A DNA stretch of 60,533 bases, filler included, from Asterionella formosa (lineage: Eukaryota), in the NCBI GenBank assembly GCA_002256025.1. It is 5 parts of 5 records of this genome, joined end to end, with 100 filler letters (N's around TTAATTAATTAA, not from the genome) between each part and the next. Parts side by side here need not be neighbours in the genome. Positions count along the whole stretch, not along the records: positions 48,526 to 60,533 come from NKIB01007968.1; 4 more parts are not named here. One strand, 5' to 3'. Positions 25,903-60,533 of this stretch are shown one piece after another (the first letter of the stretch is position 1; each line of letters begins with the position of its first letter). Position numbers and translations under genes: made by a program. The notes under the pieces are model-generated. The model was not told where the DNA came from. It saw nothing but the letters and a program-made list of their open reading frames with translations, and did not search any database.

Positions 25903-25921
25903 ATCATAATTTTTTTGAAAC

Positions 25922-34974: not shown

Positions 34975-34996
34975 GTATCCATGTCCAGCAGGAGTG

Positions 34997-36417: not shown

Positions 36418-36419
36418 GT

Positions 36420-37127: not shown

Positions 37128-39480
37128 TGTCGCAAGCAAAATATATAACACCTGTTGACACAATCACGACAATACCATATGCCGCCGGACCCAGAGAAAC
37201 TATTTACCAAATAATTTTCTACATTTGTGTGCTCTATGAATTTATTTCATACCCTGGAAGATCCAGTAAAAAACACTATATACTAAAAAAGCCACACAGC
37301 GGTTTCAACCTACTTCATTGGAAGTCTGACCAGCTCACCAATTCAGAAATGATGAAAAATCTCAAAATATTTCCATTTATTTTATACTACCTGTAACCGT
37401 TATAAAGTTTCAAATGGAGAAGCGCTGCCACCTTTCACAGCAGAATCGCTGACTACCAACTTCAATTTGCTGACTGTGGACTTCTTGTTGCTAACTGCTG
37501 ACTTGATTTGCTGAAAATTTGAAATATTCGCTGACTGCTGACTTCATTTGCTGACTACTGACATGCAGTCGCTGACTGCTGACTTCATTTGCTGACTACT
37601 GACATGCAGTCGCTGACTGCTAACTTCAACATGCTGACGTCAAGCAAGCTACTTTGTACACAGGAAGAGACCAACTACCAGTTCCAGTGTACAAATCATG
37701 TTTACTTTTCATATTTGAAGAACGACAGAAACACATCTTTTTGTTGTTGGGATACTAAAAGCGATGCCTTCTACATTTTTTACTATTGGGAGTAACATAG
37801 ATATACCTGGTACTCCGTACATGATAATAAACTGTGAAATAGACATTGATGCCTGAATAAAATCATTGCTAACTTCTTCTTCATATTGCTACCACTATGT
37901 AGCGGTACTATCGTAAAAATGATGACTTCAACTTTCTAACTACTGACTACTGACTTGATTCACTGAAATTTTGGAAAAATCGCTGACTGCTGACTTCAAC
38001 TTACTGACTGCTGACTTAAAGTTCATTTTGACAATAAAACGAGTAACGGCTTAACATCTAGCTAGGCAAACAACTATTTAAAGATTTACAGAGTGGCGTA
38101 AAATTTAGGGGTTCGACAATTTTTGGGGGGTGTACTCCTGCCTTTTCTTGGAAGGGAATCGATGAACAGAAAACGAGCAACCTGCATGCTATGTGCACTG
38201 ATTACCAGACCTTCCTTTTGGATATACTGCTGGTAGCAGTTCAATCCATAGGTTCAAGTTCCAGCACATACATACATATGTATTGGTCACATGTATCTCC
38301 ACCATACTGTGTCTGTTAACCATGATATAATGACTCCACCAGAGGTACATTGTAATAATCCTCTGCTACTCCCCTTCATTCAAGCTGTTAACCAAGGTAT
38401 GTGTGCCACAAGATTACCCAGGTTTGCTGTGGAATCAATCATAAAATTTGAGCACATATGAAGAATTTTCTCATCAATTCACATGATTGGTTACTGCTGA
38501 GGTGCAATAGTCTCCCCTTTCTGCTATTCTGCTGCCATGGGACATATCTCCCCTATCTGTGATTCTCTGAGCATCTGTGTAGGCTAGATCCACCATTGCA
38601 GGGGGATATATCTCCCCCCCCTCCCCCATTTGAGGAATCGGCAAGCCAGGAGTCGGTGATGCTTGAGAGATGGGAAGACATGGTGGGGTAGCAATCAAGG
38701 AGGGTGGGTGGGAGATGTGGAGGCAGACCATGCAAAGAAGAGGATGCATCCAAGAGACAGGAAGAAAAGAGATGGAAAGATAGTAATGCCAGAGAATTCA
38801 TGCCCCTTGTGAGACTCTTATGGGCATAAGGAGTGCACCTGTTTAAAATCTTATGGGCGTCTTGAGTGTCTGTTTAAAACTCGGTACCGAGTAAGGTGTG
38901 TGTAAGGGGGCCACAATCAGTCAGAACCTCTGTTCGTAAAGCTGTGGGGAGGTCATTTGCAGGTCGATTCACACTGGGATTGAGTGCAGGGAACAGTTCA
39001 AAAGGCGTTCAACAGCCAAGAGCAACTGTATGCAAGCAAAAAGACGTTCAACGGTCAACTTTACTTGTGCGGCATTCAACTGCCAATGATTTTTTCTGTC
39101 AACAGGCGCCACTGTAGGAGGCGAGCCCTTCACAGGGGTATGATGTTCCAAGGCGCATGGGTACACAAGAGAGGTAAGGTCTGATAAACTAGTAAGCAAA
39201 ATATAAAACACCTGTTGACACAATCATGACAATACCATATGCCGCCCGCCAGGAGACCCAGAGAAACTATTTACCAAATAATATTCTACTATTGTGTGCT
39301 CTATGAATTTATTTCATAACCTGTTGGATATACTGCTGGTAGCAGTTAAGAAATCCATAGGTTCAAGTTCCAGCACATACCTACATACGTATTGGTCAGA
39401 TGTATCTCCACCATACTGCATCTGTCAACCATAGAATGACTCCACCAGAGGAGGTCATATGTTGTAATAATCCTCTGCCA
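37128..39480 (-). mobile_element. Possible internally deleted LTR element (direct repeats 37128-37255 plus 38216-38368, and about 39190-39480)
   Basis: Diverged direct repeats of about 290 bp; outer ends TG (37128) and CA (39480); minus-strand purine tract GAATGAAGGGGAG abuts the left repeat. No TSD seen. Confidence 0.5.
37256..38215. mobile_element. About 960-bp insertion with short TIRs and internal GCTGACT arrays
   Basis: Absent from the sister repeat at about 39320. Ends GGAAGATCCAGTAA and, as reverse complement, GGAAGGTCTGGTAA. GCTGACTGCTGACTTCA arrays at 37448-37640 and 37920-38020. Confidence 0.7.
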
Positions 39481-42033
39481 TTTGGGACCCTCCTCTGATG
39501 GCAATGATACATTTTTATTTTATACAATGAATACCGGTAGACAGGAGGACGGCTAATACTATGTAACGCTATCGTAGGGCGTACTCCCTCGTCAGCATAT
39601 GATACCTGGCTGTGGTACATGATACATTCTGTTATGATGTTATAAGAGAGTACTATCTGGTACCACCGGTAAAAAACTGCCTTCGCCCATGATGATTGAA
39701 TTAGGGTGTGTGCTTGACTCCTCCGACCATATGTACATTATATCCCATTTCAAACCTGTTTGTTCAATACATAGTGTCAGAACATCATCGTAGGAATAGA
39801 CACTGTACGAGTACATATTAGCTATTACACTGTACTGGTACCGGTACACAAAAATTATGCCCCATCCTCATTCATGTACCATTGGCACCAGGTACCTGGT
39901 GCCTGGTACTCGGTGTGCAGCAGCAGCAGCAGTAGACTCCTTCTTACCTACAGGTAAGGAGAGGAAGGTGTGAGTGATGGGACACCAACAGCAGGTGAAG
40001 GAGGGAAGTCTGATCTGCCAGTTTGTTTTTGGAACTTTATACTTGGGTTGTACTCCCAGCAGATCGAAATGCAATGTCACCTAGTTTTGAAACTAAGGCG
40101 GATGGTGACATCTGCCAGTCGACTCTGGTCTTGAAGGAGTTTTGATTCCTGACTACTAGTATTGTTGGTGGTAGCAGAAGCGACAAGTATGCAGAATAAA
40201 AATAAAGAGTCCAGAAATTCCTCAAATGAGGTGTTTGAAGAAGTTTTCAACAATAAACAAGTTGTTGAACCAACAGAAAAGATGCAGGATATGCAATGAA
40301 GATGTGTGGGAAAAAAAAACTATCATATTCCCATGATGCATCATAGGATTGTGATCATCTGATCATAATTTTTCGTTATATCATCTAATAATTTTGATAA
40401 GAAATGCCCTTGTAATTTAAATATTAACCCTTTTGACTATGTATATTTAATTATTATATGTATTGTTTCTATTAGATTTCTGTATTTGAATTTTTTGGTA
40501 GGCTAATGTACCAGCTAAAGTAATGTAATTTGGCTTGTCATTTCCATCCGTCATCACTCCGATTTTTGCAACAACAACGAAATACTAGCAATGACAAGGA
40601 AGTGGAATGATTGTTTGCGATAACGTCTTCAATTGTTGGTCAAGTGATCATTATATCTTTGAGTAATCGTCATGTGCAGCGAACCTATGTTCATAATCAT
40701 TCAATTAAGAGTTAACAGAGAATAAATCATTCAAACTGAATGGTTCCGCACACAGCGCAAATAGTAAATCCATTTCGTCGACCTCCAGTATGACAATCTC
40801 GCAAATCAACTTGTAAGCAAACACATTCTACTTGTTCTTGTTGACATTTTCAATTCTCACATGATCATACTAGCTACATCTACAATTGAGATTCAGCATA
40901 CCAGGAGATACGAAAATGTAACAGACTGCTGTCCACATAGTTATAGTAATAGAATGATTCTGATTACAATTTCTTTTTCATATCGCTCATTTCCGCATTT
41001 AGGATACTGTTCTTATATTCACTGTTGAACTTGTCCGCATCTTTGTTGCCATCAATAGGGCGACAAGTGGCTCTCATCATTGTTGTTTGCTCCTGGAAAA
41101 GTCGGAGTACGTGTCATCCTCATCAATAGAGGGACAAGTGTCCTTCATCATCGTGGTTTGCCATTGGAAAAATTGGTACCCATATCGTCATATGCTCGTT
41201 GGAACCACTGTCCGTTGCTTCAAACCTGATAAGCGTGTGTGTATGTGCACTGTCGACTTGTTTACATTACAGGAGTGACTTGTTAGGTACTAAAGTGCGT
41301 GTTATAATATCATACTCCGTAGTACGGTGCAGAATACTATAGTTCCCAATCATCTCATCATGATTGATAAGATGATAATGTGATATCACGATAGGTTTAC
41401 ATCGATACATACATCACCAACGTATGATATGTAATATTAAATAAAGTATATCACATAGCTATGATGCATTGATCATAGAACTGTGATGATTTCTTAAAAT
41501 TTTTATGATATAATTTTGATCAAAATATGATCATGTTAAAATAATACAATGACAATAAAATACGATGAAATATGTACTTATCGATACATAACAGAAAATA
41601 AATAAATAAATCATAATTATGTTACTTAATATATAAATTCGACTTTTAATGTATACAGTAAAAGCCAACCGTTAATATGATAGTATTACACGGTGGATAA
41701 GATCTAAGTATACGGATGTGTTGATATGTACATCACTAGAATATGATTTGTGATATGGATTGATGCATATCACATACCGGTATCCTCAACAACCAGCCAT
41801 CACGTTCATCGTCGTGTCGTTTTTCCTTGTTATAGCTGTATTTATTCCGGCATGTGTATTGTGTAAACACTACGCTGGCGGAACATGCATATTACACTTC
41901 TGTGCTCTGTTCAACAATTACTACACTTGGTTACCATCACACCAGCTGCACCTCCAGAAGCGCCGCAAAAAGCTCCTCGTTTCCCTTCCACTGTTTTACA
42001 TCATAGTCTTCTGGCCCTTTGACAACTTTCCAA

Positions 42034-43907
42034 ATGGCATTCCATGGATTTCATGCAAAGGATCAGTCAAACACCAAGAAACGTGACTTAATTCCATTGT
42101 TTACACTACACGACTTTATGTTTTCGGAAAAGAAGATGAAGAAAGTTATGAAATCAATCGAAGATTCCTTTGAATACACTCAAAGATCAAATGAATTTGA
42201 ACAGATTCATAATACTCCAGAAAAAAAATGAAGTATGCCGATACAATAGTGGCTGAGATTGAAAAGAAGGAAAGATTGCTTTCGAAGAGGAAACCCAAAC
42301 AGTTGGTCTTCGTGGATGAAGACTCTATTCGTACAGAGTCACAGTTCCACCATCCAGTGTCGTATTTTGCTCCTCATTCTCCTGAAATCGTTGATAATGA
42401 AGAAGAACTCAGTGATTCTCATTCATTTGATGAACAAATTCATGCGATGAATGACAATACCGGAGGAAATGTGGGAGACATGCATCACTTCTGAAGTAGA
42501 AATGGTTGAAAAGTTGCTAAACCAAGAAATATGTCTCACTATTCAACCCCTTTCAATTTTATAATCAAATGATCCTGAAACTATGATCATTTACTGTCCT
42601 GCTGTAGTAGAACAGTCCTGAACATATGGTGTTGCTCGCTTACTACTCTGACTACCCCCAGTATATCACTTCCTACCTGCTACTGGTACTCTCTATATAT
42701 TTGATAATATGTTATTGTCATATGATGTACACATGAAGAACTCCCGCCCAAAAAAGGGGCTTAAACAATTCGCTACCAAAATCCTTGCGCATAAATAATG
42801 ATACAAATGGGTTGTGACCCTAAACAATTGAATGGTCTACCGGTAAATGATTAGTTCCAACGGACATAGAAAATATTGATGCAAAAAAATTTTAAAAAAA
42901 AGCATCGGTACACTAAATTGTGGAAAACAATGGACATAACATGCATTGAATATTTTCGAATTATCTATGTGCAAATATGATCATCTCAACAATACTAGCT
43001 ATCAGATGTGCCATATTGTGAGTACCTTTGAATCTTATAAATTTATGACACTTGATATATTTATATATTTACAAATTTATAACTATATACATGGCGAATA
43101 TATTTGAAATCGTTCTGTCATGTTAACAAACAATGCCTGCTTCATGAAAAGAAATGTTGTAGTACAGCATATGACAAGGAAAGTTTACGCAATAACGAAA
43201 AACATTGTGGCTTCGACATATTGCGCTTCGAAGGATGGAGTATGTTTAAGGTAATGAAGCCATCAATGTGGTACTACTTGGATGACAATCGTTGGGAGGC
43301 AGGACAACAACAAATTGTAAGCTAAACGCACGTTTCCTTTTTTCTCAGTTGATTCAAGAGCTCGTTTCGCTTGTTGGGGAGCACCAATGTAAAACAAAAC
43401 AAAATTGGTAAGTGCTCTTGTCGTGGTTGAAATTATTCACTTCTGATGGAACATAACTGACAGACACGCCACTGTACCTTCTCTCAAAGTTAAGCTAACG
43501 AAAATGAATCGGTGCGTTTTATTCGGCAACATTGGAAACCTGAAACTTACTTATTCAAGAATTTAATGGCAATTTACTATTACAGACTTATGCAACACTT
43601 TCTTTGATTTGGCTGTGGTAAGTGAAGCAAGCAAGAGGATACAATGGAATGGCGCGATGCTGTGTCAGTGTAAGAACATGTCTAGCTAACAAGTCATTCC
43701 TTCTCATTGTTACTGTAACTGCATAGGGCAATAAAACCGATCAAACAACGGATTAGTCGGCGATTTCAGAATGACACTAACTGCAGGGAGAGAGACGAAG
43801 CACTGCTTGGCACAAGATTCAGAAAAGAGGAAGAAAAGGGCGAGACAGGAGCAATATACATTGAGCCGATTAGAGAGAGAAACGTTGGGTCGCTGGCATG
43901 TAGAATA
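42034..43907 (+). pseudogene. Decayed intron-containing orphan gene; whether the upstream ORFs belong to it is uncertain
   Basis: GT-AG introns at 43251-43348, 43408-43494 and 43618-43726 give a continuous frame with two premature stops. Frameshifted ORFs upstream at 42034-42494. Confidence 0.4.
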
Positions 43908-45389
43908 ATAGACAGCATTGCTAAATCTGATAGTTAAATTACGATCCATTTCAATCTATTTTGAACAATGCTTTTGATTAGAATTATGATCATGTTTAAG
44001 ATAGATATATGATGAAACAATTAACATGATAGAATAGAGTTTAGCTGATTCAAGGATGCGTTGTTGTTGTAGTAATAATTTACATCGGGCAATCACGAGA
44101 ATTGAAAATAATATGAGAAGATTAATGATGTTGATGAGTGATGTTTTTGATCAGTTGATATACATTGTGTGATGATAATGTTCTTATTATCAGTATACTT
44201 CAAGGTCCGTAAAATATTAATCAATCATCATAGTTATAGGATACCTTGATCATAATTTTGATCCAAAATTATCATATATACGAAAATCCTGTGCCACTTA
44301 GCGTACGATACCCTTGATCCTATATGCATGACACTTTTTATTTGCAGACAGAGGTAGGAGGGAGGAAGCAATTTTGTCAGTATTGTGGTCTTTCTGTTAC
44401 ACTAACAACTATTTGTTCTTTGGTAGGACAAAGTTGGAATAAGGTTTGTAAGGTGGGTAAAAATGTTACAAGGGTTGAACGTATAGAGTAGGAAAGGTGG
44501 ATTATTGTTGATTGGCAAAGCGTTGTGTGGGATATGGTGATGACTGCCCTGCTTTGAGCTGCGTTTTTTCACTGCCACATTGCAAATTGACCACAGATTA
44601 GATTGTCAATCAATTGATATCTGCTGATCATCACACTGGTGGTCATACACAGCTAGTATGTATTTAGGTTATTATTACACAGATGCATGATTTCATACTA
44701 CTGTAGTTACATTACTTTTCCACTATTTTTCATCAGCTATACAATACTGTAGTTACATTACTTTTTTCAATATTTTTCATCAGCAATACATTGATTGTTT
44801 TCACTTCATTTCGGGTATATGTGTATTATACATAAACATACCTACCAGTAATAGACTTGGTCCTCTATTCACTGTCATATATTGCCATAGTATATGCACT
44901 CGTGGTGACTCCATATTAAGTACTCTAAATATCTACAATGGTCTATTCCCCGCATACACGTACCCTGGTACCAGGTACCGGGTAGTACCAACCCAGTAAG
45001 TAATCACCGACCTATGCCGGGTACCAGTCGATAGGAGCAATGGTACCTGGTACTGTTACCAGTACCGGTATTGTCGTTAGCTTGGTGCACTCTACTGGAG
45101 TACTAGTAAACTACCAGTGCTAGCTTCCACTACGGATTTAACTGGGAGTAGAATTTTTACGACTACGTTCCCGGTAATATCATCGCTTGCCTACAGAAAG
45201 ACAGGCGAGTGAACGGTACAACCTGCAAGTTGCAGTCATTTTCTTGCTGAAGTGGACAACGTGACGAAAGACAGGCGCTCAAAACGACTACCGGGTAAAC
45301 AGAGAACGTCACCAATTCTCTCTTTGAGTCGACAGTATCACGACTTGCTAGTCACGCAAATAATTTTTTTCATAACACGAAAACGTGAA

Positions 45390-45865
45390 AACGAGGCAAA
45401 TGGCTGAAAAAGAAAATGACAATGACTAGTGAAATAGAGGGGTGGCCCGAAGCAAAAGTAAGCACAGGTTAAAAAAGTCTTGCTCACATTACTTTATTCT
45501 CTCCAAACTCAAAGTCGTTCTCCTTTTCCCGCCGAAGTGATGAAAAAACACAATCATGAACGGTTCTATATCAATCAGGATTTGAAATATTTGCATGCTA
45601 GCATCATCATATGTAACAACCAATGGTACCCGATATGACTATTATACAATTCCAACTGTATACATGCCAGTGACTGGACTCATGCTGCTTAGGGTACCAG
45701 CAAGTTGCGGACATTTTGCTTAATAATCAATTAAATTTGCGATAAAGACAGCTTAAGCTTTAGTTTTAAAAAAATTACCACAACTTGCAGGTACCCAAGG
45801 TAACACTTGTAAGCTCTTGTATATATCAGTAATTATTTAGCTTAGATTATTCGATTCATTTCTAT
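45390..45865 (+). repeat. Dispersed non-coding repeat; second copy at about 48925-49290
   Basis: Shared blocks GAAATAGAGGGGTG, GCAAAAGTAAGCA, ATGAACGGTTCTA and TAATTATTTAGCTTAGA in the same order. Confidence 0.85.
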
Positions 45866-46265
45866 GTATATTATATATTTACCGGTATAGCACTACAGAG
45901 TAATTGTGTAAAAGTATCACATGAGTGGCTGGAGTATGCATGGGGCATGACGAAATTAACAAATAACACCATGAACAATGAGAACGATGCTTTGCTATTG
46001 TTGGCTATACTTATATTAAGCACAATGTAGAAAATACAATTGTAAAAGAATAGTTGTAATAACTCTTATATTGACAAAGAAAATTGAAATAGCCGATAGT
46101 GCATCTTTTAATGAATTTTATAGATTAACAGTTCAAAACGACAATTCTATCAGCAGATTTGACACTTTCACAGTAGCTGCACAACGATGACAAAGACGAC
46201 AAAAACAACATGACTCATGAAAGCAAAAGATGTAAAACAAATTTTTTTATCAGCTTAGATTTGAT

Positions 46266-47319
46266 TGCTGAAGGCAAGACATGCCTGAGGTGGCTGGTCT
46301 CTTGCCTGCGAGTGTACATGTGTTCCGGCGCTGCAAGAACATCACCCTACGAGCGCCATCCCAGCCAAGTAAACATGAATACAAGAAAGCAAATAGCCAC
46401 CAAGAAGGGTATTGTTGAGGCAATTCACAAACTAGCTATCGTTGCACCATTCCCTCACCTACTGTTGCCCACTCATTGAGCGTGAATGTCATTTTTAGCT
46501 TCTTGCTATATATAGCCCATCAGCATGTAAAATATTTTGTTTATTTCCTATCTTCACATAAAATCTTACCTAGGTCCGATATTGCCCATCATTTAGATAT
46601 ATTTTTTATATTTCATATGTTCGCAATTTGGCAAGACAATTTACACCAATTGCCCCTCGGTTTTTCAGCCCTGGGATTGCTGAAATTGGCAAGAGATCTT
46701 CAAATGGAAACCATTTTATATGCAATACAGATTTGAATTAAATATATCAAGTATTCACCTCATCTTTGTTTGTCGCCTGAGAACGGACTCTCCAGCAATT
46801 CACCTTTCACCATGCTGATCATCGTCCATCATGTCCAGTCTGAAGCGACATGGTGAGTTCATTGATGATACCAGTGGCGGTTCCTTGTTAATCGGATGCG
46901 GTTGGTTGTTGGATTGCTTTTCTCCTCGTGAGATTCATGTACTCGCATTGTCCATGTTTCTTTGGATGAACAATTATATTGGCATCTTTGATAAATGTTG
47001 GTTGGAAGTTTTTGCTTTGGTCATTTATGTGCTCAACGGATAATCTAGTCATATAGCCTACATACATATGCAGTACTAAAAACAACCATGCATGGTTTAA
47101 GCTAAACTTTAATGCTTACTTTAAACACCCTGTTATAATATACATGCTTTACACTTGGTATTATCCTCATGAGATCAAATTATTTGCTTCACATATTCAT
47201 TGATTTTATTTATGCCCGATTTCATCCTTACAATTATACTTATCACTCAGCTCTGCCTGCCATTGCTGAATTCAAGCTTGCAATAGGGACCTTTCTACTT
47301 TCGATAAATCCCATCGTCT
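46266..47319 (+). mobile_element. Older, truncated non-autonomous copy of the Crypton-like family
   Basis: Begins TGCTGAAGGCAA; collinear with the reverse complement of 910-1910, with many CpG-type transitions. Confidence 0.85.
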
Positions 47320-47986
47320 GATGAGTTGTCGTTTGGTATACTTTCTACGGTTGTTGCACTTACATGGACCATGCCACCAGATGTTTAACGGTTACAATCC
47401 TCAAAACGAGCATACCGTCATTTTCTTCCTTCCCACCATTGCAACTTTTGGGGTTGCGCATTCCATAATTGAACACAAGTTGCCGTTGTTATACCGGTAC
47501 TCTTATATCGTACTTTTTACGTATGTTGAGAATAGATGGTCCGAAGAAAAATGGGTCCTCATGCGTCTGCATGCATTTTGCTCGAGATGAGCAAAAGTTC
47601 AAGTCGAAAAACGTAGTTGCCAATTTTACCATAATCTTTCTATATATAATGTATTCATGATCCTGGAGCTTAGAGCAAGCCGCACAATAGGGCAATTGAA
47701 GCGGCGAAAATCGTAGCAGTCAAAATGGCCCAGGATAAATTTGAATTATCGATGCAACTGTTACTAGACAGAGGGAGTACCAGGTACCATGTACCGGTAC
47801 CAGTACCAGGATCAGGTGTGTTAGGTGCACAAGCAAGCTCCCTTGTTCCTACCGGTATGCAATAAAAAGATTGTCATGCCTCATGCCTTTTTGATCATTT
47901 CTGCTTCAATTCACATTTGTTCTGCTCAGCCATATATATAAAGAAAGCCGCTCGTGCCACCTTTTCCTCTTCCACCCAGCCGCAAC

Positions 47987-48425
47987 ATGTCGAAGCCAAA
48001 ACCGGACCTTTCAAAGGAAGCAACTCACTGGATTGCTCCCATGACGGCAACACAAAAATCGCAAGTCAACTTGACTGAAGAGTGGCGGCGCCACAATTTG
48101 ATGCAGCTCAGAAGCATGCTACAGGATCATCGCAAGGAGTGGGTAGACGCATTGCACCAAGATCTTGGCAAGGATGTATGCGAAGCCCTTTGGACTGAAG
48201 TGCTGTTGACCATAAAGGACATTGACCACACCTTGGCTCATCTCAAGAAATGGATGAAGCCTCAATTCGTGGCAGGACCGGGATACAACGCTATAGGATT
48301 TGCGCAGGTTGAGCGCCGTCCGCTTCGGTCTCCCGGTGTCCTTGTCATTGGGCCTTCCAACTATCCCCTACAACTTACCATCATGCCTGTGGCTGGATCA
48401 TTGGCGGGAGGCAACCCCACTGTTA
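47987..48425 (+). CDS. Aldehyde dehydrogenase (ALDH3 / fatty-aldehyde type), 5' part
   Basis: EWRRHNLMQLRSML, ALHQDLGK, LKKWMKP, PGVLVIGPSNYPLQL..P.AGSLAGGN; runs into the gap. Confidence 0.9.
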
Positions 48426-48525
48426 NNNNNNNNNNNNNNNNNNNNNNNNNNNNNNNNNNNNNNNNNNNNTTAATTAATTAANNNNNNNNNNNNNNNNNNN
48501 NNNNNNNNNNNNNNNNNNNNNNNNN
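48426..48525. other. Artificial contig linker
   Basis: 100-bp N linker with TTAATTAATTAA. Confidence 0.99.
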
Positions 48526-48924
48526 GTGAAGTATTTCAAATAATTATGTGAAGTATTTCAAATAATTATGTGAACGTGATCACATAATATAGTGATGATC
48601 AGGAATGCATGCATGATACTTTGATCAAATATTTAACGTGATGTATTCAGATAATATATAGATATATTCAACTACGTATTTTGATGTATTCAACTAATTC
48701 ATGTGATGCATTCAAAATCAACTAGGCTTATTTATGTGATGGTCACTTCACGTAATACGCGGCTTAGATGTGAGCTCCCTGGATATGGAACAGTATGGTA
48801 CAATGCAAATGGAATCGCTAATATCAACAAGGCTACTGAGTCACTTATGATAGCTTGGAAGAAAATGCTTTTCATGGCTACAAATCAGATGGAACTGTTC
48901 GAAATTGAAGTAGAAAACCAACAT

Positions 48925-49290
48925 GAAAATGAAGAAAGGCAGCCAATGACTGGGGAAATAGAGGGGTGACCCAAAGCAAAAGTAAGCAAATCTTGCTGAT
49001 GTTGCTTTATTTTCTCCTAACTCAAAATTGTTCCCTTTATCCGGCCAAAGTGATGAAAACAACCAATAATGAACGGTTCTACCAGTAATATCAATTAGGA
49101 TTTCAAATATAGTGTGTCATCATAGGTAACAACTAGTGGTACCAGGGTACCCGATAGAACCACGTATTATGCCATACCACAGTAGAATGCATGCTGGTTG
49201 ATGCTTGCACTTGCTGCTCTGGGAAACCGAAGTAGCAGTTGTAAGCGCATGTTTTTAATTATTTAGCTTAGACTATTCAATATTTTCTGC
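48925..49290 (+). repeat. Second copy of the dispersed repeat at 45390-45865
   Basis: Same blocks as 45390-45865; differs by short TA-bounded insertions. Confidence 0.85.
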
Positions 49291-49827
49291 AAATAATACC
49301 GATACCGGTCGTAGTTGATGGCCGAAACATCATGATTTGCTTACGCCATTGCTTACGTCACCTGACGCCAACCAGATTGTCCATATTCTTTCACTTCGAC
49401 ACGTTACAAATGTGCTTTTATGTCACACTCTCGGAATTCCGTACGCCTTAGGTACACATGCTAGTAGAGTGTATTGTGGAACGCATCACCACTGTGCAAG
49501 GGGTATTCTTCATTCGTGGCAGTCCTCGCCACTTGCTTGATCGCTGAAATCTGCCTCCGACTCGTTGCACTCTGCGGCAAGCCTAATTTCCACCATCGGA
49601 CTAACCGGTACGGTAATACACTTTGTTGCCTATCAAATACAGGCAGTCTTATTAGAAACCCCGACCGTTGATCCCCATGGGGTCAAGAAATGTTGATTGA
49701 CATCACTCACCAATCATTGGCACCTTGGAGTAGGCTGATTTGTCCAAGTGGTTCGATCTTTTATTAACCGAAACTAGACTGCCGAACTACCGATTGTAGC
49801 GGACTCTATCAAAGTATTGATCAAGCC

Positions 49828-51234
49828 ATGCTGGTTCAAGTACTATTCTCGTTTTGTCGAAGTCAAACTGCTTCGGCGTCTGCGCCTGGACTGTTCGCTC
49901 GGTCATGCCGTGCGCTGCATACAACGACGGTGCGAGACTTACATTGCCAAGCAGCCCAACTGACAAACGCTAATAGCGAGAACCAGCAAGTACCGCTGAA
50001 GCGAGAGTACAACTCCCTCAATAATGAAACGCCCTACAATCTCTGCTTTCTCCGACACGGACAAAGCACATGGAACCGAGACAATCGATTCATTGGATGG
50101 ACAGATACGGTAAGCGTCTTGATGTTGAGAGAATTACGTGAAGGAGTGATTGTCATGCGAGTCACCTGCCTAGTTTTGCTTCTTGCATCCTCGTTGGAAC
50201 AAGTGATACCCTCACATCAACCCCACCCCTTTTGCTTTCAATTCAAGCCACTTACAGACGACGGGGTCTTGGAAGCCCGCGTAGCAGGTCAAATGCTTCA
50301 AAAATCGGGCATTCTCTTTGATGAAGTGCATACATCGTTGTTGCGTCGGAGCATCCGGACTGCTAATTTGGTTCTCATGGAAATGGGTCAAGAATACATT
50401 CCAGTGTACAAGAACTGGCGACTAAATGAACGAAGTTATGGAGATTTGGTGGGGAAAAACAAAAAACAGCTTGTGGAAATTCACGGGAAAGAGCAAGTGA
50501 AGCGGTGGAGGCGTAGTTATGATGAACCACCACCCGAAATGACGGATGATCACCAATATCATCCTGCAAGAGATCCAAGGTATCGACTGGTATGTAGTTA
50601 GTTGTGTTCTTGAATACATGACGTTTGTGTGAAAAAAGGTGGTAATTTTGTCAATGAATTGCATGTGTTTATGGGCACTACAATACTAACGTTCTTGTTT
50701 TCGTGACAGATGCTTGACCAAATTCCGAAGACCGAATCTTTGAAATGCACCGTCGAACGCTCACGTATTTATTGGAACGAAACGATTGCTCCAGCCCTTC
50801 GACACGGAAAAACTGTCCTGATAGTTGGTCATGAAAACAATTTAAGAAGTCTGTTAATGAAACTTGAGGGTATCGACAAGGAAGATATTATTAACCTCTC
50901 CCTTCCCAGAGCAGTCCCACTGGCCTATCGATTAGACAAGGACCTCAAACCCATTCCACGGAAAGACGGGACCAAGGACGAAGCCACAGGATTCTTAAAT
51001 GGAACATGGTTGGGTGGAGACCAAGCGGTTAGAGAAATTTTGGATCGCGACCACAAGCAAGTATATGATACCAGCATTCGAAAGAATTTAGAAACGGACG
51101 ATCCATCGAGAGACAATTGGAAAATGTGGTTGGAAGCAGCCGTTGGGAAGCCATCGCCTGAACAGGGAGCGCAGAGCAACCCCGGGCACTGCCGGGCGGA
51201 ACATGAATGGGAAAAGGAAAAGGTGGCGAGTTAG
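49828..51234 (+). CDS. gpmA: 2,3-bisphosphoglycerate-dependent phosphoglycerate mutase; exons 49828-50109, 50248-50589, 50710-51234
   Basis: LRHGQSTWN.DNRFIGWTD-PLT, WRLNERSYG.L.G.NK, WRRSYD.PP, ESL, VGHENNLR. Both introns are phase-0 GT-AG. Confidence 0.95.
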
Positions 51235-54200
51235 GAAAATTGGAAGAAGGGCGAGCCAAGCAATTGATTGTATCTTTAGTATAATGTGATGGGCATATTT
51301 TAATATCACCGTACTATTGTCGTGGTACAGTCGCTTACCTGGTGCTGCGATAAGCTCCCTGTTGTTCATACTGACAGGAGTAAGACTAGCAGTAGCTTTT
51401 CATCAACACTAGATAAGTGGTATAACTGGTCACAGGGATGAGGATATACAATACCGGAAAGTGGTGGAGTCTATTTATCTCTGCACTGCAGAATCATTTT
51501 CCAAAAATATATGTATACTTACTCAAAATCTAGTTGAAAAAGTTAGTTTTATTATTTAGTGACATATGTGAGAAAGATAGAAATGACATCAAAGAATGTT
51601 GAGAAAATAGCTGACACCTTAACTAACACAATAACAATAATCGCAATTCCGTTCGACATCAAGAACAGGAAAAAGAACCCAACGAACACTCCTGCAAGAC
51701 ATACATGCTCCAAAGCGGGCTTCGCAATGCTCCATGGCAAACTGACAATCAGAACCTCTGTCAAAACAAACCAATCTTTCGAAACCAATGAAGAAGCACT
51801 ATTCACCAAATATCTATGAATCGCTTCAATGATTCTTGGCAATTGATTCCACCAATAGGTTATTTCCAATGGATTCCAACACTTATGACATAGATGTACA
51901 TCATGCTGTAGCTACCATCAAGTCAGAACTTTTGACCCAACAACATGACTCAGATACCATTGCCCAGAATGGCTATCCGAGTTGAGGCATTGAAGCTAAG
52001 AACATGGGTTACCAAATCTGACAACAACAACAACCTAAATATTTCCATAAGTTGGAATAAACTAGTATGCAATTCATGCATGGTGGGTAATTAGTGCCAG
52101 CCAGGACACTGCTCACCAACCCTACAACATAGATAACAACTTGCTGCTTCTCATTGTCACTATGATTAGGATATCAAAACAAATTGCAAATGGATCAGCA
52201 TCTCATTTCAGTAGGACCTATGGAAAGGAGCAAACAGGCAAGCAAATGAAAAATCGAAGTAGACAGCCACCATAAGAGTACAAATGAGCAAACAGTGATA
52301 TGAGGGGAAGCAGAACAAGCTTAATGAGTGATTGGGGAACAACTCCTTTTGAATTTGAGTGATGGTGAGGACAGTATGTTTGTCTGCAATCACTGTGAGA
52401 AGTGTGGGAAGCAAGGGGAAGGCTCATTCAACGCAAGGCATTGTCTTGCTATCATGCTGCAGGAATCAAAGAACAAGCAAAGGTGGTAGCAAAGTGTAAG
52501 GATGGTGAAAAGGCGGATAGCAGGTTGAAAGATAGAAATGATTTCTAATTAAAGTAAATTTACAGCATTTATGATACTTTCTATTTGCAGATGGTATGAA
52601 TTTCAAGTGTAAAGACCAAAACATGATGTGCCTGCCCTGGCATCTGAATCCTATCTGCACACAACAAGTTCTCCATGTGTATAAAAGCTTGGTTTACATA
52701 AGTAAATTTGATTGCGCACTGCTATAGTAGGGGGTCAATGAATCATCATTTCTGTCTTGACCATGGTGAACTGAATAGACTCAATATCTCCACGAAAATT
52801 GACAATGAATAATTCCTATTGTGTATGTATGTTTAGCCTAATATAATCATTTCTTCCCAGAAAGAATGATCTGTAATTCATACTTTTGATTCCTATATCC
52901 TACACATATATGATCAAAGCATTGTTTTGGCACTTTTTTGTTCTCCCCGTGCCCGGAACCACACCCAGGCTTAGAGAGAGGTCCCGTGAGTAATCATGAT
53001 AGTGAATACTCGGATGGGAGTGGGGTAGGGAACAGAAATCCAGTGCATGCCACCCCTAGCATCAAGAAACCTGTTTTACCATTTGATAAAACAGCGTCAA
53101 TTATATTTAAGAAAAAAATTATCTAATTATTATATGATTTGTACCATATGAGATCTGTTTAATGACTCTGGCTAATTGAGGGGCTTATCAGTAATCAAAT
53201 CATTGACTTGTACTGAAGCAAGTGATACCCAAACTATTACAAATATTTCTCCAAAATCTATTACATCCATTCAACATCTTCATCATCGTGCATGACCACA
53301 TCATGGTTACCGTAATGTCATAAATTATCGTATTCAGCAGGCACAATATCTTGTGGAACATTGTTGATCTCCATATTTTTGCAATTGCTCTTCTGAGATT
53401 TTACAAACACTCTCGCCGCCCCCCGCCCCCCCCTCAAAGTCCACCCATTTTGGCCTGCAGTGATGACAGCTCCTGGCCCCCCTAAATTTTTTTCGTCTAT
53501 CGAAAAACTTCCACCCATGCGTTGATGTAGGCGGTTACTTTGTAACAGATCCATCAGATGCCAAAACTACTATTCCATTGAGAAAGTTCTGTTTGAAAGC
53601 GGTGAGATTGGACGGAAGCGATAAAATTGGACGGAAATGTGATGTCACCCATTGATTTTTGTAGAAATGATTTCTTTGCTACAAGTCTATTAACTTCCTG
53701 AAGGTACTGTGAAAAGTCTGAATTCCCTCTGATATCCTGGTGGCGATGATGTGTGTTAGCCGGCGGTTATCCTGTTATCTCATAAAAAGTAGCTATTGTT
53801 TTATGAATTGACACAGGAATTAACCCAACTGCATCTAGTTTACAGCACTTTTTCGAATTTAAGTCTAAAGTGACGTATTCATGCTACTTTTTTAAAAACT
53901 TATGGTACTTTTCTAAAATATTATGTTACTTTTTCCGTAATTTATTCTGGTTAAACAAAAATATATTTCACTTATCGAATAATTATGTGTGTTTGTGACA
54001 ATATATGTTGTCCAACTAGCCATCGTGACAGTATAAAAGCGAAATTATGTTGCTTTCATCATATAATGATAAAAGAGCCGCCAATTCCAATTCAGTTATT
54101 TTTTCCGCTCCGACATATTTTTTTGATCTGAACTGGCAAAGAATAACACATGCAAGAGGAAGATTCACACAGTAGAATTCAGCACAAGTAGTAGTAGTAG

Positions 54201-54307
54201 TAGTTGCTGTTGCAGACAAATTGTTTAGTCATTGTTGATTGTAGAGTTTCCAGCAGCCTGCCAGATTAGAAATAAAGCACCATCGGTCCTCGTTGAGCAT
54301 CGTTGAG

Positions 54308-54843
54308 CCTTGCATGTCGCCATAGTGAGTCGAAATTGAGATGTGCCTCAATGGCCTTCTCCATTCGATGCAACAACAAATAGTCTACATCGATAACTCT
54401 GGCAAGTGCAATATAGAAAAAGAAGCAAACGAGGATGAGTAGCTGTCAAAGATTGAATTCGTAAAATTGTTTAGGAACAGCTGTTGCATATTTTAACATT
54501 CAATGCATGTCCCTGTGATGAGTCGAAATTGAGATGTTCCGCAATTGCCTTATCCTAATTGGAGCAGCTAGCAATATTCTGAAGCGATAACTCCAGCAAG
54601 TACAATATAGAAAAAAAGCAAACGATGAGCAGCTGTCATCGATTGAATTCGTAAAATCGTTTTGAAACAGCTGTTGCATATTTTAACCTTGCATGTCGTC
54701 GTAGTGAGTCAAAATTGAGATGTTCCGCGATGGCCTTCTCCGTTTCAACGCAGCTACAAATAGTCTGCATCGATAACTCTATCTAGTATAATATAGAGAA
54801 AGAAGCAAAGGATGAGCAGCTGTCAACAATTCAAATCGTAAAT
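54308..54843. repeat. Tandem repeat of about 190 bp, nearly three diverged units
   Basis: TGCATGTC..TGAGTC.AAATTGAGATGT..CGATAACTC..AATATAGA..AGCTGTCA..TCGTAAAAT recurs at about 54310, 54504 and 54690. Confidence 0.9.
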
Positions 54844-54859
54844 CAGTAATAATTTTGGT

Positions 54860-56575
54860 TCCTAGTTTACATTTTTCCTTGGTCCAGATAAATGCAAAGA
54901 ATCAGGTTTCAGTCCATGTTTCATGACTGCCGAAAAAACTTTATCATTGTCCGTTAAGTTTTGAAGGATTTCCCACACAGTTAAGTCATACTCTTGAGAA
55001 TCCTAAATGTTCTTGTAGTGAATGATGGTGTCTGGTGGACGTAAATTACGGATGCTGAAAGTCATTGTATTCTTTTCCAAGTGTTGCTGTTTGCATATGA
55101 AAGTGTTGGTTGTGGCAATGGTACTTTTGATTACCAGCATGGGAACGAATTTCATTTGCGGGCATGTATAATCTCGGTTAGCTGAATCTTTTCCATATAT
55201 AACCTGTAGAGCTTTGCAAATGCCATCATAATCCTCCTTTTGGAATCTAATCAAATTGACTGAAACTGATTCTTGCTCAGTTGCTCCATGAATCTTTGAC
55301 CAGCTTACTTTTCATTTAATGATCCTGCCATGGATGTGTCCTTTTTGCTTATTCGAAATGTGATTTGCGAGTAGTTTGCAATACTCATGGGCCAATGAGC
55401 CATACAATGCTCCTGCGATGACAGTTTGGTTTAGGCCGAAAAACGATTCAGTTAATGTTAGGGAGGGATATTTTGCAAGTAATTTCTTCACTGTCAAGGA
55501 TTGCAAAATTTCGTTCATGCTTTTATGCTGTATTTTCAGTATTCCAAAAAAGTTCGATACATTCATGCTTCCCTTGTGTACATATTTCCGAATTTCCCAA
55601 GTGTCGATTGCTTGAGGTAATGTGCCATTAAATCGTGAAATAATTGGCATGTCCTCAGCCTGTTCTTGTGGTAGTCTCTTCATTTTTGGGGTTGACTTCA
55701 GGAGTGCCTTTAGTGTAGCCCGTACTATGGTCATGATTGTCTCATCGGTGAAGTGATGGTCTTGAGTGATCCGAAAATCTAGATAGTAAGTCAAGTATTC
55801 CTTCTATCTGGGTTTACATTTATCTTCTGATGCTGTATCGGTCGTGTCCATGAAATTTATCTGATTTCTTTGTTCTTGTTGTCCGTTTGTCTGATTTGTC
55901 TTCGCTGTAGATGGTATGTCTGGGTCTGTGCCTACCATGGCCTTGTTGATTCCAAGCAATTGTTATTTTGCAGTTGAAGCGGCTTTGCCGAGGGGGTTTA
56001 GGATTGTCGGAAAGCACAGCTGTTGTTGTTCCTTATTTGTATTTCTAGCCGCCTTATGTGCACCATTTGCAAGGGGTGTGTCAAGTGATGTATGATGGAG
56101 CGTAGGTAAGGGAATGCGGACTCTAGTGACCACACTTGTCTGTGGAGGTGTGCTGGGCGCGGAGCTATCCATATGCGACAATGATCCAAATGAATTTGTA
56201 GGAGAGTGTGGGTGCTTCATAGTGACTTTTTCCCAATTGCTGCTGTCGGCAATGCCGAAGGTGAGCCTTTGCTCTTTTTCTTGGCTGATTTCGAAGGGAC
56301 CCATTTCCACTGTGCCGAACCCTTTGCTTGTGGAGTGGGATCATCAAGAGAAATGTTTAAGAATAGTGCTTCATTGTCTGGTAAGAATGGGATGCTGTCA
56401 TTCGCTTTGCTATCATTTGGGTCTTCCCAGGGAGAGTGGTTGTTCTGCATGTTCATGACATTGTTTTGATGCATATTTGGGATTGATGAGATTGCTCTGG
56501 TGGTGTTGTCGTTGCCAATAGTGGGGAAGGTGAATGCGTTGATGGTAGCATGGGACGGAGGAGAGCCCACCATGA
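54860..56575 (-). pseudogene. Frameshifted long ORF, possibly ORF1 of a diatom non-LTR (Ambal-like) retrotransposon
   Basis: Collinear intronless fragments 56217-56573, 55963-56310, 55312-55794 and 55003-55254. Family assignment is from recollected resemblance only; no RT visible. Confidence 0.35.
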
Positions 56576-57064
56576 TGAAGAGGTGGATCCACTCATGAAG
56601 GGATACGTAGAAACCCTGTAGGTGGCTGGTACTGAATATATTAAAAATTTACTCAAGGCAAGTTTTCCAAACTTAGCAAAAATCTATTCACGAGTCATAA
56701 CATACACACACTACCATTATTCTTTTCCTGTTTCCCAATGCTAGCAAGCAACTTTTATCGAAACTTGCACAAAGATTGCAAATATAGCTGTTGCTCCTCC
56801 AACACCTCTGCAACCACAAGTCCAAATCAATACAGAAACCAGCACTGCCTCTAAATGCCTTCAGGCATTGGTTTCTGCTCCTCCAGGCCCAATCTGAATA
56901 TTTCTGAAATTTTCGTCATTACAACGACAAAAAAGTGTGAGTTGACAATTGTTAATGAAAAATGCATTGACAAATTTTCACACAATATTTCCGCTGACCC
57001 ATTTTCTTTTTCACTTTTTATTCTACTCCCTGCTTGTCATTTTCACGTCTTTCCTTTCGATTTC

Positions 57065-57386
57065 CATTTCATACTTTGGTTGGTTAACAACATCGTGTAA
57101 AAATTTCGATGCTTGTTACAATCATTCTTGTTTGACTATTTTTTATGCATACCGGTAACGGTATATTCGGTCGTCCATGCATTTCTGTTGTGTCCAAACT
57201 TTTTCCCATTAAAATTCTACTCCTGACGTTGCTGGATGGTCCCTGCTGCTCAAACCTAAATTGACTGCCGAAAAATCCACTCTGCCCCATATTGTCCCTA
57301 GATTAAACAATTACTTAAAGGATACCAAAACTTACTTAGACACCCACAGTTCTCATCGAAAAGCAAGATGATAGCTAGGGTGGGGT
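57065..57386 (+). mobile_element. Probable distal (right) end of the Crypton-like family
   Basis: CATTTCATACTTTGGTTG, TGTTACAATCATTCT and CCGAAAAAT.C..T.TGCCC align to the reverse complement of 1-175. Confidence 0.65.
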
Positions 57387-60300
57387 TGCTGAAGGCAATA
57401 CACGCCCGAGGTGGTCTCTTGCCTGCCCGGCGCTGCGAGAAGGTCACCCTACGAGTGCCATCCCAGTCGAGCACACATGTATACGAGAAGGCAAGTAGCC
57501 GCTGAGAAGGGTGTTGTTGAGGCAATTCCCGCTCTAGCTATCGTCGCGTCATTCGCTTACCTACTGCCCACAAATTTAGCATAAATGTCAATTTTAGCCT
57601 ATTATTGGCCATCATATAAAAGAAATTTTGTATATTTCCTATCTTCACCTCGAAAATTGCCAAAGGTCCGATATTGCCCATCATTAAAATATATTTTGTA
57701 TATTTCATATGTTAGCATTTTGGCAAGACAACAGACGTCAATTGCCCCTCGGTTTTCCAGCCCTGGGATTGCTGAAATCGGCAAGGGGTCTATTAAGGAA
57801 ACCATTTCATATACTATACAGATTTGACTATAATATATCAAGTATTGACCAATCTGTTGTAAAATACATCGATTTTGTTTGTTCCCGGATGATTGCTCAT
57901 CGATAATATCGTTGATTGGACTGTTGGGGAACAAGATTCATGAGTTGCGCCGGTAAGAAGTCCATTTTGCGCCATCGTTGTCACATTTTTGGTGCTATTT
58001 TCAGATGTTATATTCAGTTATTCTTCAAAAATTTATTTTTTAGTATGTTTTCTACGTGAAGATCAGATGTGATGTCTCGGAAGCAAGTTTGAGAGTGCTT
58101 TTGATGATGCTCTAAAATATATAGTTGCTCTGTTTTAATTCAATCTTATTACAATTCTAACATACTGATTATTCTACAATGACAACGGGAACTAGAAGCC
58201 GTCGTTTCTCTCAAAGAGCAGTGACAAATACTGCTAAGCGCAAAGTGCAAGATGATAACCGGCGTGCTGCATTGGCAATGTGTGCACTAGAAAGGAAAAA
58301 GAAGCTTGGGTATGTTGTTGATTGGTGTGTGCTTCCGCCCATGCTGGCTGACCGAATTGTCGATTTCATCCTAACATACTATTCAATTCATTACATTCTT
58401 CAGCTTATTGGAACGGAATGAGGTTGTTGCAAATGCTGCAAGTATTCCCGAAGCAGCCATTGATTGGAATGAAGAAATAGAAAGGTGCATTTGTTGTTGA
58501 TTGTTGCATAATTGTGCTTCCATTTTGATTCATCTATCATTGATGATGCGATCACTCACAGTCGCATTGTTTCCTTTCCGGTCATTGTCAGCTTTAAAGA
58601 AGCTTCTAAAAGCAATGTTTCTACAGTTGTGAACTCATCCAATGTTGTAGAAACACCCAATTCTGACATTGATAGACCCAGCTCTGTTGATTGTCATGAT
58701 TCTGAGGATGATTGCAACAGTACTACTAGCACATCTGATTCCGATTCAAGGTACTTGTTACCTGCTTCCATCATTGCTCCTCATGCTCATCGTGCTGATT
58801 CCCGGATTCCAATGTCTCACTCAACTGCTGAAGACTATGCCAATGCAATTCGATCCAGCAATAATGTTTTCGGATCAACAAAACAAACAAATTCTATTAG
58901 AAACCTGTCGCATAACACAATCAAATACACCAAGTCACTTACCATCATTGAATCAAGGTTTTTTGAATCCCTTGTCGAGAATGAAACCTTGAGCTCGCTT
59001 GCTTCTTTCGACAATGATCCTGACAATGGCAACCAACCAATCCGTCGATTCTATCTAATCTGTCGTGAGCTAAGACGCAACGCCACCAAAGACATCATCA
59101 ACACTGGTGTACTTTGGTTTGCAACCAAATTCTGCAAGAAAAAATCGCCCCTCATTCTCGAAAGTGCTTCTGACGAAGCCATTGCAACGGCAATGTACCA
59201 ACCGAACACCGCTCAAACCAAGCTGAAAGACCTCTTCCGATGCTTCTCCCACCAACAAGGCATACCATATTCCCTGTCGAAAGATTTCAATGGTGAGGGT
59301 GAGATTCAAGCATTCTTTAAAAAAATATGGCAATTGCTGCCAAGCACCGGCCATTGGAATATGGCCACAAGCCCATGGCGTCACAGTTTGGTCAAGACGA
59401 GGACAGGAAGCTACGAACACTCCAAATGCAGCCTTACCTTAATTATGATGATTGCCTCAAGTCCATGGTATGGAAAATGGGCAAAGCGTTTGGTGTCAGA
59501 GGGTCGATAGAAATGTGCGACTTGACATTCAATAAGGTGACAGTTGGTTTGATGGACGGATTACGAACTGTCGTGCTACATCCAAGTGAAGTCGAAAAAA
59601 ATAATGCCCTGACGTTGCAAAATACTGAGCGGAAGTACCAAGGTCTACAGGAACGAACTATGATCGAGGATACAGGCAACCCGACATGCATAGTGAAACT
59701 AATACATCACTACCGGGATAACCTCTGTTCGCCCGAGATGGTAACTAGCAACCAACCGTTTTTTCGGCGATGCGCTCCTGAGAAGGAACTCAAGGTATGT
59801 AAACTATGTGTGTAATCCCTTGGACACACCGGTGAATTCATTATACCTGGTGCCAAATTTGTACTGGTGATTTGTTGTGCATACTATGGACTAACTTATG
59901 TGCATCTTTTTCTACATGGCTCCTCGTATATCCATCACTAAGAACCGACGCAAGCTAGGGCTAACATACGAGGCAGGACACAAGAAGGGAGACTGTTTTG
60001 GTAAAGGCTATGCTACAAGACTATGTGTCGACCTAGCAACAGCTGCGGGCATGGATAATGCTGCTCGTTGCACTGCCCATGGGAGGAGGAAGAGTATGAT
60101 CTCTTCCCTTGTCAACTCTAGTGTTTCCTTACCTACAAAAATAATTCTCGACAAATCCAGGCATGGATCAGCTGAAATCAATGCCAGATACCAGCTGCCA
60201 TCAAAGGAAATGCAGCATCAAGCAAGGCTAGCAGTTTTTGAAAAATTTGAAGACAATGAGGACCAGCATAAAACTCCCGAGAAATATTCTTCCGACCTTG

Positions 60301-60533
60301 CAGTTGTTCCTCCTGATGTCAAGAAATCGGCTGAAATTTCCATTCCCATTGACGATCCTATTGTTGATTGTAAAGTTGTTTTGTTGCCCTCCTCTACCAA
60401 CCCAACTCCTCATGCTCATCCTCCAGGAGCTCCCATCCACTACTACTCCCACCATCTGCTTCAAACTCCTCAACACATATACAGTTCTGGTCCGCCGCCT
60501 CCTGCACAACATGCAATCTACCATCCCGGCCCC
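57387..60533 (+). mobile_element. Crypton-like tyrosine-recombinase DNA transposon (coding copy, right part beyond the contig)
   Basis: Family terminus at 57387 followed by a spliced recombinase gene; no RT, long TIR or TSD seen. Confidence 0.82.
58179..60533 (+). CDS. Tyrosine recombinase (DUF3504/Crypton-like); exons 58179-58309, 58404-58484, 58592-59794, 59943 to window end; one frameshift near 59330
   Basis: Three phase-consistent GT-AG introns. Catalytic set R (FGVRGSIE, 59498), probable K (EKNN), HxxR (TAHGRRK, 60078-89), H (SRHGS, 60162) and Y (NARYQ, 60189). Also YQPNT and CIVKLIHHY...PFFRR. Confidence 0.85.

Follow-up and report, generated by a model that had tools for sequence, protein, structure and literature searches.

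Here we show that a stretch of DNA from the Asterionella formosa assembly GCA_002256025.1 (60,533 nt; hereafter the window) contains, in the last of its five pieces, a joint at which the right end of one transposon copy abuts, head to tail, the left end of another (57385/57387). The element belongs to a new Crypton-type family, and its downstream copy is predicted, on the basis of conserved residues and a structural model, to encode a Crypton-type tyrosine recombinase closest to DUF3504/QRICH1 and Cre. With slightly more than even confidence, we read the joint as a head-to-tail junction of two Crypton-like copies, that is, as a partial tandem formed by recombinase-mediated joining. By linking the termini, the sequence at the joint, its recurrence elsewhere and the encoded protein, we delimit a candidate recombination site for this family.

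The window is composed of five unrelated eukaryotic pieces of ~12 kb each (1-12055, 12156-24195, 24296-36317, 36418-48425 and 48526-60533), which come from separate loci and were artificially joined through spacers of the form N44-TTAATTAATTAA-N44 (12056-12155, 24196-24295, 36318-36417 and 48426-48525). Because the spacers split the window into pieces, repeats that match across it are matches between different loci; the joint sits in piece 5, and the copy at 1-1910, with which it is compared below, sits at another locus in piece 1. Copies of the family were surveyed in the window, in eight metagenome contigs (L001-L008) found by scanning metagenome contigs with the left-terminus pattern, and in contig summaries of four public runs (X1, X2, X6, and X7), whose contigs were placed on 56000-60533 at 85% likeness. 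The public runs that contain the stretch carry the labels algae, freshwater or lake metagenomes; X1 is possibly the source sample, and X2, X6, and X7 come from other studies. Scans of viral and genome contig collections returned no match to the left-end pattern.

The left terminus of the family is sharp. Family matches in the window cover 1913 to about 1 (minus strand) in piece 1, 46263-47319 in piece 4, and 57386-57850 in piece 5, and in the aligned window copies homology sets in at TGCTGAAGGCAA, corresponding to 1910 (minus strand), 46265, and 57387, respectively. All 11 copies with a left end (three in the window and eight in metagenome contigs) begin at TGC, the first base of which is 57387 in piece 5. 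Their upstream flanks are mutually unrelated in 8 of the 11 cases, the flank in piece 1 being the interior of a Copia reverse transcriptase (RT) domain. In the public runs, loose contig ends accumulate before 57386 and 57387 (50 and 36 in X1, 24 and 24 in X2, 18 in X6, and 20 in X7), and agreement of their consensus before this point is just 0.36-0.40, indicating diverse flanks; loose ends behind 57385 number 42 in X1 and 24 in X2. Both 57385 and 57386/57387 are true termini, as contigs from the four public runs break there.

The left-end module (57387-57850, plus strand) is the most abundant part of the family and is common to recombinase-bearing and non-autonomous copies. It is 91% identical to 1875-1489 in piece 1 and 79% identical to 46265-46759 in piece 4, the latter belonging to a third, more diverged copy (46265-47319, plus strand). 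The motif GGCAAT/ATTGCC occurs five times in its 464 nt, compared with 1.06 times per kb window-wide (~ten-fold enrichment). AT directly precedes TGC in three of eight ordinary left flanks, a faint hint, read from these sequences, that the favoured target may resemble ATTGC. A segment within the left end (57426-57468) is variable, with many contigs skipping 42-53 nt or holding other letters there; its counterpart is missing from the piece-1 copy, and L001 carries a longer insert at this position. Tandem Repeats Finder reported no tandem duplication inside the left end. Two other identities were considered for this region and set aside. A known RNA-derived repeat was ruled out by the lack of any Rfam match at E<=1 and of any tRNA gene in a tRNA scan of 56000-58500, and a DDE-type element with a 24-nt inverted repeat and a 130-nt leader spacer was rejected given that the left termini with diverse flanks lie at 57387 and not at 57522.

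Upstream of the joint lies a right-end module (56613-57385, plus strand, left boundary approximate), the 3'-terminal ~750 nt of the upstream copy. The earlier note on this DNA had claimed that the sequence left of the terminus is homologous to the opposite end of the 1-1910 copy, and this holds. Against the whole window, 57065-57134 matches 170-96 at 76% over 76 nt (E 2e-8), and a more sensitive search extends this to 57014-57134 against 219-96 (69% over 129 nt, E 6e-11). The remaining part, 57247-57287 against 43-1, is collinear and marginal (E 0.17 in the more sensitive search), and the gap is bridged by L001. The ~270 nt upstream of the joint share homology and orientation with the distal portion of the non-autonomous piece-1 copy, and 57014-57385 is collinear with both 219 to 1 in piece 1 and 100-430 in L001; in a four-way alignment the collinearity with L001 reaches the last base before TGC. 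Right-end module and left end both match the piece-1 copy on the opposite strand, so that their relative orientation is kept and their order reversed, and the arrangement is therefore head to tail.

Copy number delimits the same modules. Summed depth of public-run contigs is low over 56000-56607, rises ~30-100-fold over 56608-57367 with a dip near 57300 (8,148-14,057 in X1), and rises further over 57368-57823, where it is 10-50 times that over the recombinase gene. The upstream step separates the bin 56456-56607 from the bin 56608-56759. In both X2 and X6, near-identical contigs of the flank end at 56642; the upstream repeat is therefore taken to begin at ~56613-56642, and low-copy host-like DNA bounds the module on that side. 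The part between 56613 and 57014 was assigned to the family by continuity and copy number, and its membership should be read as provisional.

The copy in piece 1 (1-1910, minus strand) has its left terminus at 1910 and its right-end module at 219 to 1, where it is cut by the window edge; no open reading frame (ORF) of more than 76 aa lies wholly inside it. Contig L001, a metagenome contig from a different assembly, shows how such a copy may continue. Its positions 1-333 match 307 to 1 of the window at 90%, are followed by 97 nt more, and then by a left terminus at L001 431, past which the contig continues as a left end of the piece-1 type (93% over 623 nt). L001 hence contains the same joint of right end and left end in another subfamily, and across the joint its positions 304-470 align with 57258-57426 at 71.5% over 179 nt (E 3e-21). 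Judging from L001, the right terminus of the piece-1 copy would lie ~97 nt past position 1, and an element of this type would be ~2.0 kb long; it is a non-autonomous derivative with both ends in common with the recombinase-bearing copy. Position 1 is accordingly the edge of the window and not an element end. The proposal that a right end abuts a left end is borne out by the loose ends on both sides of the joint and by its recurrence in L001. The upstream flank of the piece-4 copy, which bears a slight likeness to a right end by eye, was also considered and discarded (best match to right-end modules, E 0.14).

At the joint itself, the right-terminal arm GATAGCTAGGGTGGGGTTGC (57370-57389, plus strand) forms the left half of a dyad and is related both to the right terminus of L001 and to the reverse complement of 57522-57542. 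It includes at its end the TGC common to both ends (57387-57389, plus strand), which may be the crossover or a terminal direct repeat. A spacer, TGAAG (57390-57394, plus strand), separates the perfect inner arms TTGC and GCAA and is followed by the left-terminal arm GCAATACACGCCCGAG (57395-57410, plus strand), which forms the right half of the dyad and is identical in 10 of 11 copies, that of piece 4 differing at three positions. The joint in piece 5 reads GGGG-TTGC-TGAAGG and contains one TGC, and those in L001 and L007 read ...GGGAAT-TGC-TGAAGG. TGC opens the separate left ends, appears to close the separate right ends, and is single at the joint, as expected if a recombinase crossed over there. 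The joint sequence equals that predicted for a circle junction (right-terminal arm, TTGC-TGAAG-GCAA core, left-terminal arm). The sequence TTGYTGANGGCAA occurs five times in the window at <=1 mismatch, three of these at family termini, with 0.88 expected by chance. Loose contig ends behind 57385 have a consensus that starts with ATTGCC in X1 and X2 and is otherwise poorly conserved (agreement 0.48-0.51); together with L001, this suggests that right ends finish in ...GGGG-A-TTGC and continue into diverse flanks. The expectation that right ends terminate at ...GGGTGGGGTTGC thus fits the copy in piece 5, while most other right ends seem to carry the additional A.

The dyad symmetry is real and recurrent, but modest. 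In piece 5 the arms are present as described in the earlier note; over 16 nt they match at 11 positions with one 1-nt gap, needed because an A is missing, and at seven positions ungapped. An equal or better dyad with a 5-nt spacer is found at 210 of 60,494 window positions (0.35%), or at 1.8% if spacers of 3-9 nt are allowed, so that it exceeds chance. The joints of L001 and L007 reach 11/16 ungapped, a score attained at 30 of 60,494 window positions. The score is 11/16 at all three joints to an arm, compared with 7-10 at the seven ordinary flanks scored (L004 was left out, as its match fell at another site). The DNA hairpin of 57366-57418 has z = -2.16, a fold that is equalled or bettered by 3 of 200 shuffles. 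An ORF of 79 aa runs across the joint (57298-57537, minus strand), for which a protein search gave no junction-spanning candidate in other assemblies.

The right-terminal arm has a third, inverted occurrence, termed site c (57522-57542, minus strand), which lies 135 nt from the left terminus on its inner side. The 21 nt at the right terminus (GATAGCT..G.GGG..TTGC) match in inverted form at 57522-57542 and, in the piece-1 copy, at 1800-1820 (two window matches, none expected), and the inverted arm also recurs in metagenome contigs. Contig L007 contains an inverted copy of the element (93.8% identical to 864-1820 of piece 1) that ends exactly at this internal arm and is joined via AATTGC to a normal left terminus. 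Left ends joined to a GATAGCT..G.GGG..TTGC arm thus number 3 of 11 (piece 5, L001, and L007). Because the arm in L007 is the inverted subterminal copy and not a right end, the partner of the left end appears to be the arm sequence and not any neighbouring DNA; these joints point to the arm plus TGC as a favoured partner of the left end, as would be expected for a recombinase-binding half-site. The L007 joint (965/966, left end on the plus strand) could have arisen by insertion into the internal arm or because the terminal ~130 nt were inverted in place, two events that look alike as the contig ends 52 nt past the joint. L008 contains, at 2821-3310 (left end on the plus strand), a mini array in which fragments of the left end alternate with fragments of the right end (88, 52, 54, and 80+ nt); a ~50-nt unit occurs in it three times, and its breakpoints are at or beside TTGC or GCAA. 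A near-perfect palindrome, CGGCAAT-TTT-ATTGCCG, lies at L001 297-315, ~120 nt inside the right terminus, and has as its half-site GGCAAT, the motif in which the left end is enriched; its counterpart is imperfect in piece 1 (window positions 20-45, minus strand) and degenerate in piece 5.

Downstream of the left end, the copy in piece 5 carries a tyrosine recombinase gene (58512-60533, plus strand) that runs off the end of the window and comprises ORFs at 58512-59510, 59321-59815, and 59895-60533. The first two are separated by a frameshift in an A-run (59319-59325): the window has seven A and the frame shifts to -1, whereas P0001 (368 aa, 47 member sequences), which is 98% identical, reads through the run and implies eight. 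The extra A is present in a minority of public-run contigs (2,445 of 14,444 depth in X1), and the frameshift could be decay or a homopolymer error. The last two ORFs are separated by a probable intron (59795-59942, 148 nt, GTATGT..AG), removal of which joins them in frame with 355 codons open; the spliced product is ungapped across the exon joint with three of six relatives tested. The intron argues for DNA-based transposition. One contig each in X1, X2, and X6 (guessed to be DNA runs) skips the 202 nt of 59741-59942, a stretch with GT..AG ends whose loss preserves the frame; this skip would delete 18 conserved codons, and such contigs could stem from a deleted or processed copy.

Several lines of evidence identify the encoded protein, and the earlier assignment to the Crypton-type tyrosine recombinases is upheld by its conserved catalytic residues, by the fold modelled for the relative P0014, and by a weak DUF3504 match. 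The last is in the second ORF (E 0.001, 19.6 bits), below the Pfam cut-off of 29.7. An exhaustive search of 1.84 billion representatives with the last exon retrieved just 36 proteins at E<=0.001. Alignment of 24 sequences shows an invariant H74, together with R49 (of HGRR), R73, and Y83 at a conservation of 90% or more, giving the HxxR, RH, and Y of the catalytic set; no position could be assigned to the first catalytic Arg. Mean pLDDT of the AlphaFold model of P0014 is 54.9, with the catalytic part (residues 234-504) mostly at 70-90, and the model superposes on QRICH1 (DUF3504) with Z 11.3 (rmsd 4.2 over 150 residues) and on Cre with Z 9-10. The nearest Atlas clusters of P0014 (eukaryotic DUF3504, Phage_integrase, NDC10_II, and ALOG) serve as leads only. 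Foldseek with the same model gave no match at E<=0.001, its top rows being recombinases, and a profile of the C-terminal half of the recombinase had no match among PDB sequences at E<=10. Five relatives of 373-929 aa matched no Pfam family at E<=0.01, hence no RT domain, and one short relative gave a weak Phage_integrase match. Neither RT nor RNase H was found in 57387-60533, the 3' part of the element lying beyond the window.

On the reading we favour, the left side of the joint would be the last ~750 nt, i.e. the right end, of one copy, and the right side would be a left end, present in full, from a copy that encodes the recombinase, the two having been joined through TGC by the element's own tyrosine recombinase with a presumed crossover within TGC. 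Two routes could lead to this arrangement. A circular copy may have integrated into the right end of a resident copy that is now 5'-truncated, or a tandem dimer may later have lost most of its upstream member; the recombinase would have acted on the right-end arm of the resident and the junction of the circular copy, or in an equivalent exchange between copies. That the recombinase binds the arms, and that circles exist, are suppositions within this scheme.

A number of observations weigh against it. No circle was observed, and contigs of the public runs do not separate a circle from a tandem; of the suggestion that a circle junction has been captured in the chromosome, what stands is the agreement with the predicted junction sequence and its single TGC. 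The element extends past the window, so that its far end is missing, its upstream partner is present as a fragment and not as a full copy, and 56613-57014 has no counterpart in the piece-1 copy or in the eight metagenome contigs. No record bridging 57385/57386 is present among the 32 listed of ~34,900 contig pieces. In addition, the dyad in piece 5 is weak when ungapped, its spacer has 5 nt and not the usual 6-8, and the shared core has just 3 nt; the evidence for right flanks is a consensus and not full copies with both flanks, and the recombinase gene of the window copy is frameshifted.

A bolder reading, which we consider rather unlikely, takes the joint as the working recombination site of a Crypton lineage whose recombinase binds three arms (one at each terminus and the inverted copy 135 nt inside the left end), multiplying as circles or tandem arrays into its own ends. 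If so, a right end placed upstream of a left end might switch on the recombinase gene, by analogy with what is reported for Starships, and the L007 joint would record that the recombinase had inverted the internal arm or had driven an insertion there.

Alternatively, the two sides of the joint could belong to a single, circularly permuted copy, whose circle was opened at a secondary site ~750 nt upstream of the normal junction and integrated there. The shortness of the upstream module and the low-copy host-like DNA on its left would suit such a history, and L007 and L008 show joints forming at secondary sites that contain TTGC or GCAA. However, no sequence resembling a recombination site was found at the ~56613 boundary, the far end that would be decisive lies off the window, and nothing demands this more complex route, so that we regard it as improbable.

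Of comparably low probability, in our view, is an adjacency that arose without the recombinase, by tandem duplication, by unequal exchange or microhomology repair between short repeats, or by a chance insertion beside an old fragment, in which case the joint would say nothing on a circle. Any element with short flanking direct repeats can duplicate in tandem and give the same joint, and the very many copies of the family make chance neighbouring conceivable. Set against this, the ends abut exactly, with one TGC, at two diverged loci (piece 5 and L001), a third left end (that of L007) is joined to arm-like sequence, bringing the total to three of the 11 left ends sampled, and a repeat of 3 nt offers little for homologous exchange to act on.

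The remaining two explanations are far less credible. An assembly chimera, in which two abundant repeats were misjoined in the contig behind piece 5, could be imagined, as both sides are high-copy repeats that break short-read contigs and the records listed include none that bridges the joint, but the ends have just 3-4 nt in common, too little for a de Bruijn mis-join, and L001 has the same type of joint in a different assembly. Equally remote is an internal repeat junction of a DIRS/Ngaro-type tyrosine recombinase retrotransposon (split direct repeats A1-ORFs-B1-A2-B2): such elements do hold an internal copy of their end-to-end junction, and the few DNA-run contigs that lack 59741-59942 with its GT..AG ends could be taken in its favour, but what comes after the left-end module is the body of the element (L001) or the recombinase gene (piece 5) and no second right-end module, the RT searches of 57387-60533 and of all five long relatives were negative, and the gene keeps its intron.

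Compared with known systems, the family shares with DIRS/Ngaro elements a tyrosine recombinase and an end-to-end junction sequence held in integrated DNA, and differs from them in its module order, which misfits split direct repeats, and in the absence of RT from what was searched. Sites of the loxP/FRT type likewise have two inverted arms around a short asymmetric spacer, and FRT has a third arm copy beside its core site. They differ from the joint in that the arms here match at 11/16, a spacer counted between TTGC and GCAA has 5 nt, and TGC lies within the left inner arm and not in the spacer; for the core sites, PMC3212892 gives inverted arms of 11-13 bp and a spacer of 6-8 bp.

Crypton DNA transposons, reportedly described by Goodwin et al. 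in 2003, are the closest match, and the family fits them in every feature that could be tested. According to Kojima and Jurka 2011 (PMC3212892), Cryptons encode a tyrosine recombinase only, from a gene that contains an intron; long terminal repeats are absent, and both termini carry a short direct repeat taken as the recombination substrate, with a circular intermediate proposed. The family studied here has the recombinase and a probable intron, and seems to agree in encoding no RT, in lacking long terminal repeats, and in its short terminal repeat. Their terminal repeat has 4-6 bp, compared with TGC (perhaps ATTGC) here; Additional file 1 of the same article lists Crypton termini and may bear on how rare a 3-nt repeat is. 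Unlike Cryptons, the family has a 21-24 nt right-terminus arm repeated in inverted form 135 nt inside its left end, head-to-tail joints, and ~2 kb non-autonomous derivatives that far outnumber recombinase-bearing copies, and its protein falls below the Pfam DUF3504 cut-off with the 36 relatives mentioned above. In Chlamydomonas, the short motif at which active Cryptons insert is the same as their own terminus, and for CryptonF-1_cRei recombinase-mediated rearrangements between ends and target-like sites are reported, comparable to the joints in L007 and L008 (PMC9977147). There, insertions, excisions, and inversions were followed in mutation-accumulation lines, whereas the present data are static sequence alone; the part of PMC9977147 at hand makes no mention of a tandem joint for this element.

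Starships offer a further parallel, as eukaryotic tyrosine recombinase elements whose 3' and 5' ends are joined at short microhomology and for which, as here, the junction sequence is key to testing the mechanism (sections of bioRxiv 10.64898/2026.09.21.753150). In that system rare circles were the source of the reads across the junction, and integration was seen with a synthetic circle, while the joint described here lies in assembled, apparently chromosomal DNA, and the Starship recombinase belongs to a different family. The Crypton circle is still given as a hypothesis in the same sections. A full-text literature search found no report of a Crypton head-to-tail or circle junction.

The window also contains features at some distance from the joint. 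Its pieces encode Copia-type gag, integrase, and RT, a Tex/SPT6-like protein, a CitMHS transporter, an aldehyde dehydrogenase, and a histidine phosphatase. The Copia-type RT fragment (1905-2291, minus strand; RVT_2, E 1.3e-7) that forms the unrelated flank of the piece-1 copy is interrupted by the left terminus of the latter; it is part of a Copia-type element at 1905-6201 (gag, zinc knuckle, integrase, and RT fragment), the RT being cut at 1910/1911 by the transposon left end. Direct repeats of 632 nt (6418-7049 and 8174-8805, 99.7% identical, starts 1,756 nt apart) may be long terminal repeats. A long tandem array with a 27-nt period and about 25 or more units occupies 35431-36370, and an array with a 48-nt period (24592-24885) lies in an ORF with Pfam PT disordered repeats. 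Two repeat families common to different pieces at 75-77% identity (45420-45630 with 48944-49143, and 29287-29963 with 52144-52560) are unrelated to the joint.

To our knowledge, the Crypton circle was proposed more than 20 years ago and a recombination site has never been defined biochemically. The family described here gives a concrete candidate site of ~40 bp with sharp, well-supported termini. With a natural recombinase of intact frame (of the P0001 type) and thousands of substrate copies, recombination assays can be designed directly, and if the site works, it would constitute a new eukaryotic recombinase/site pair.

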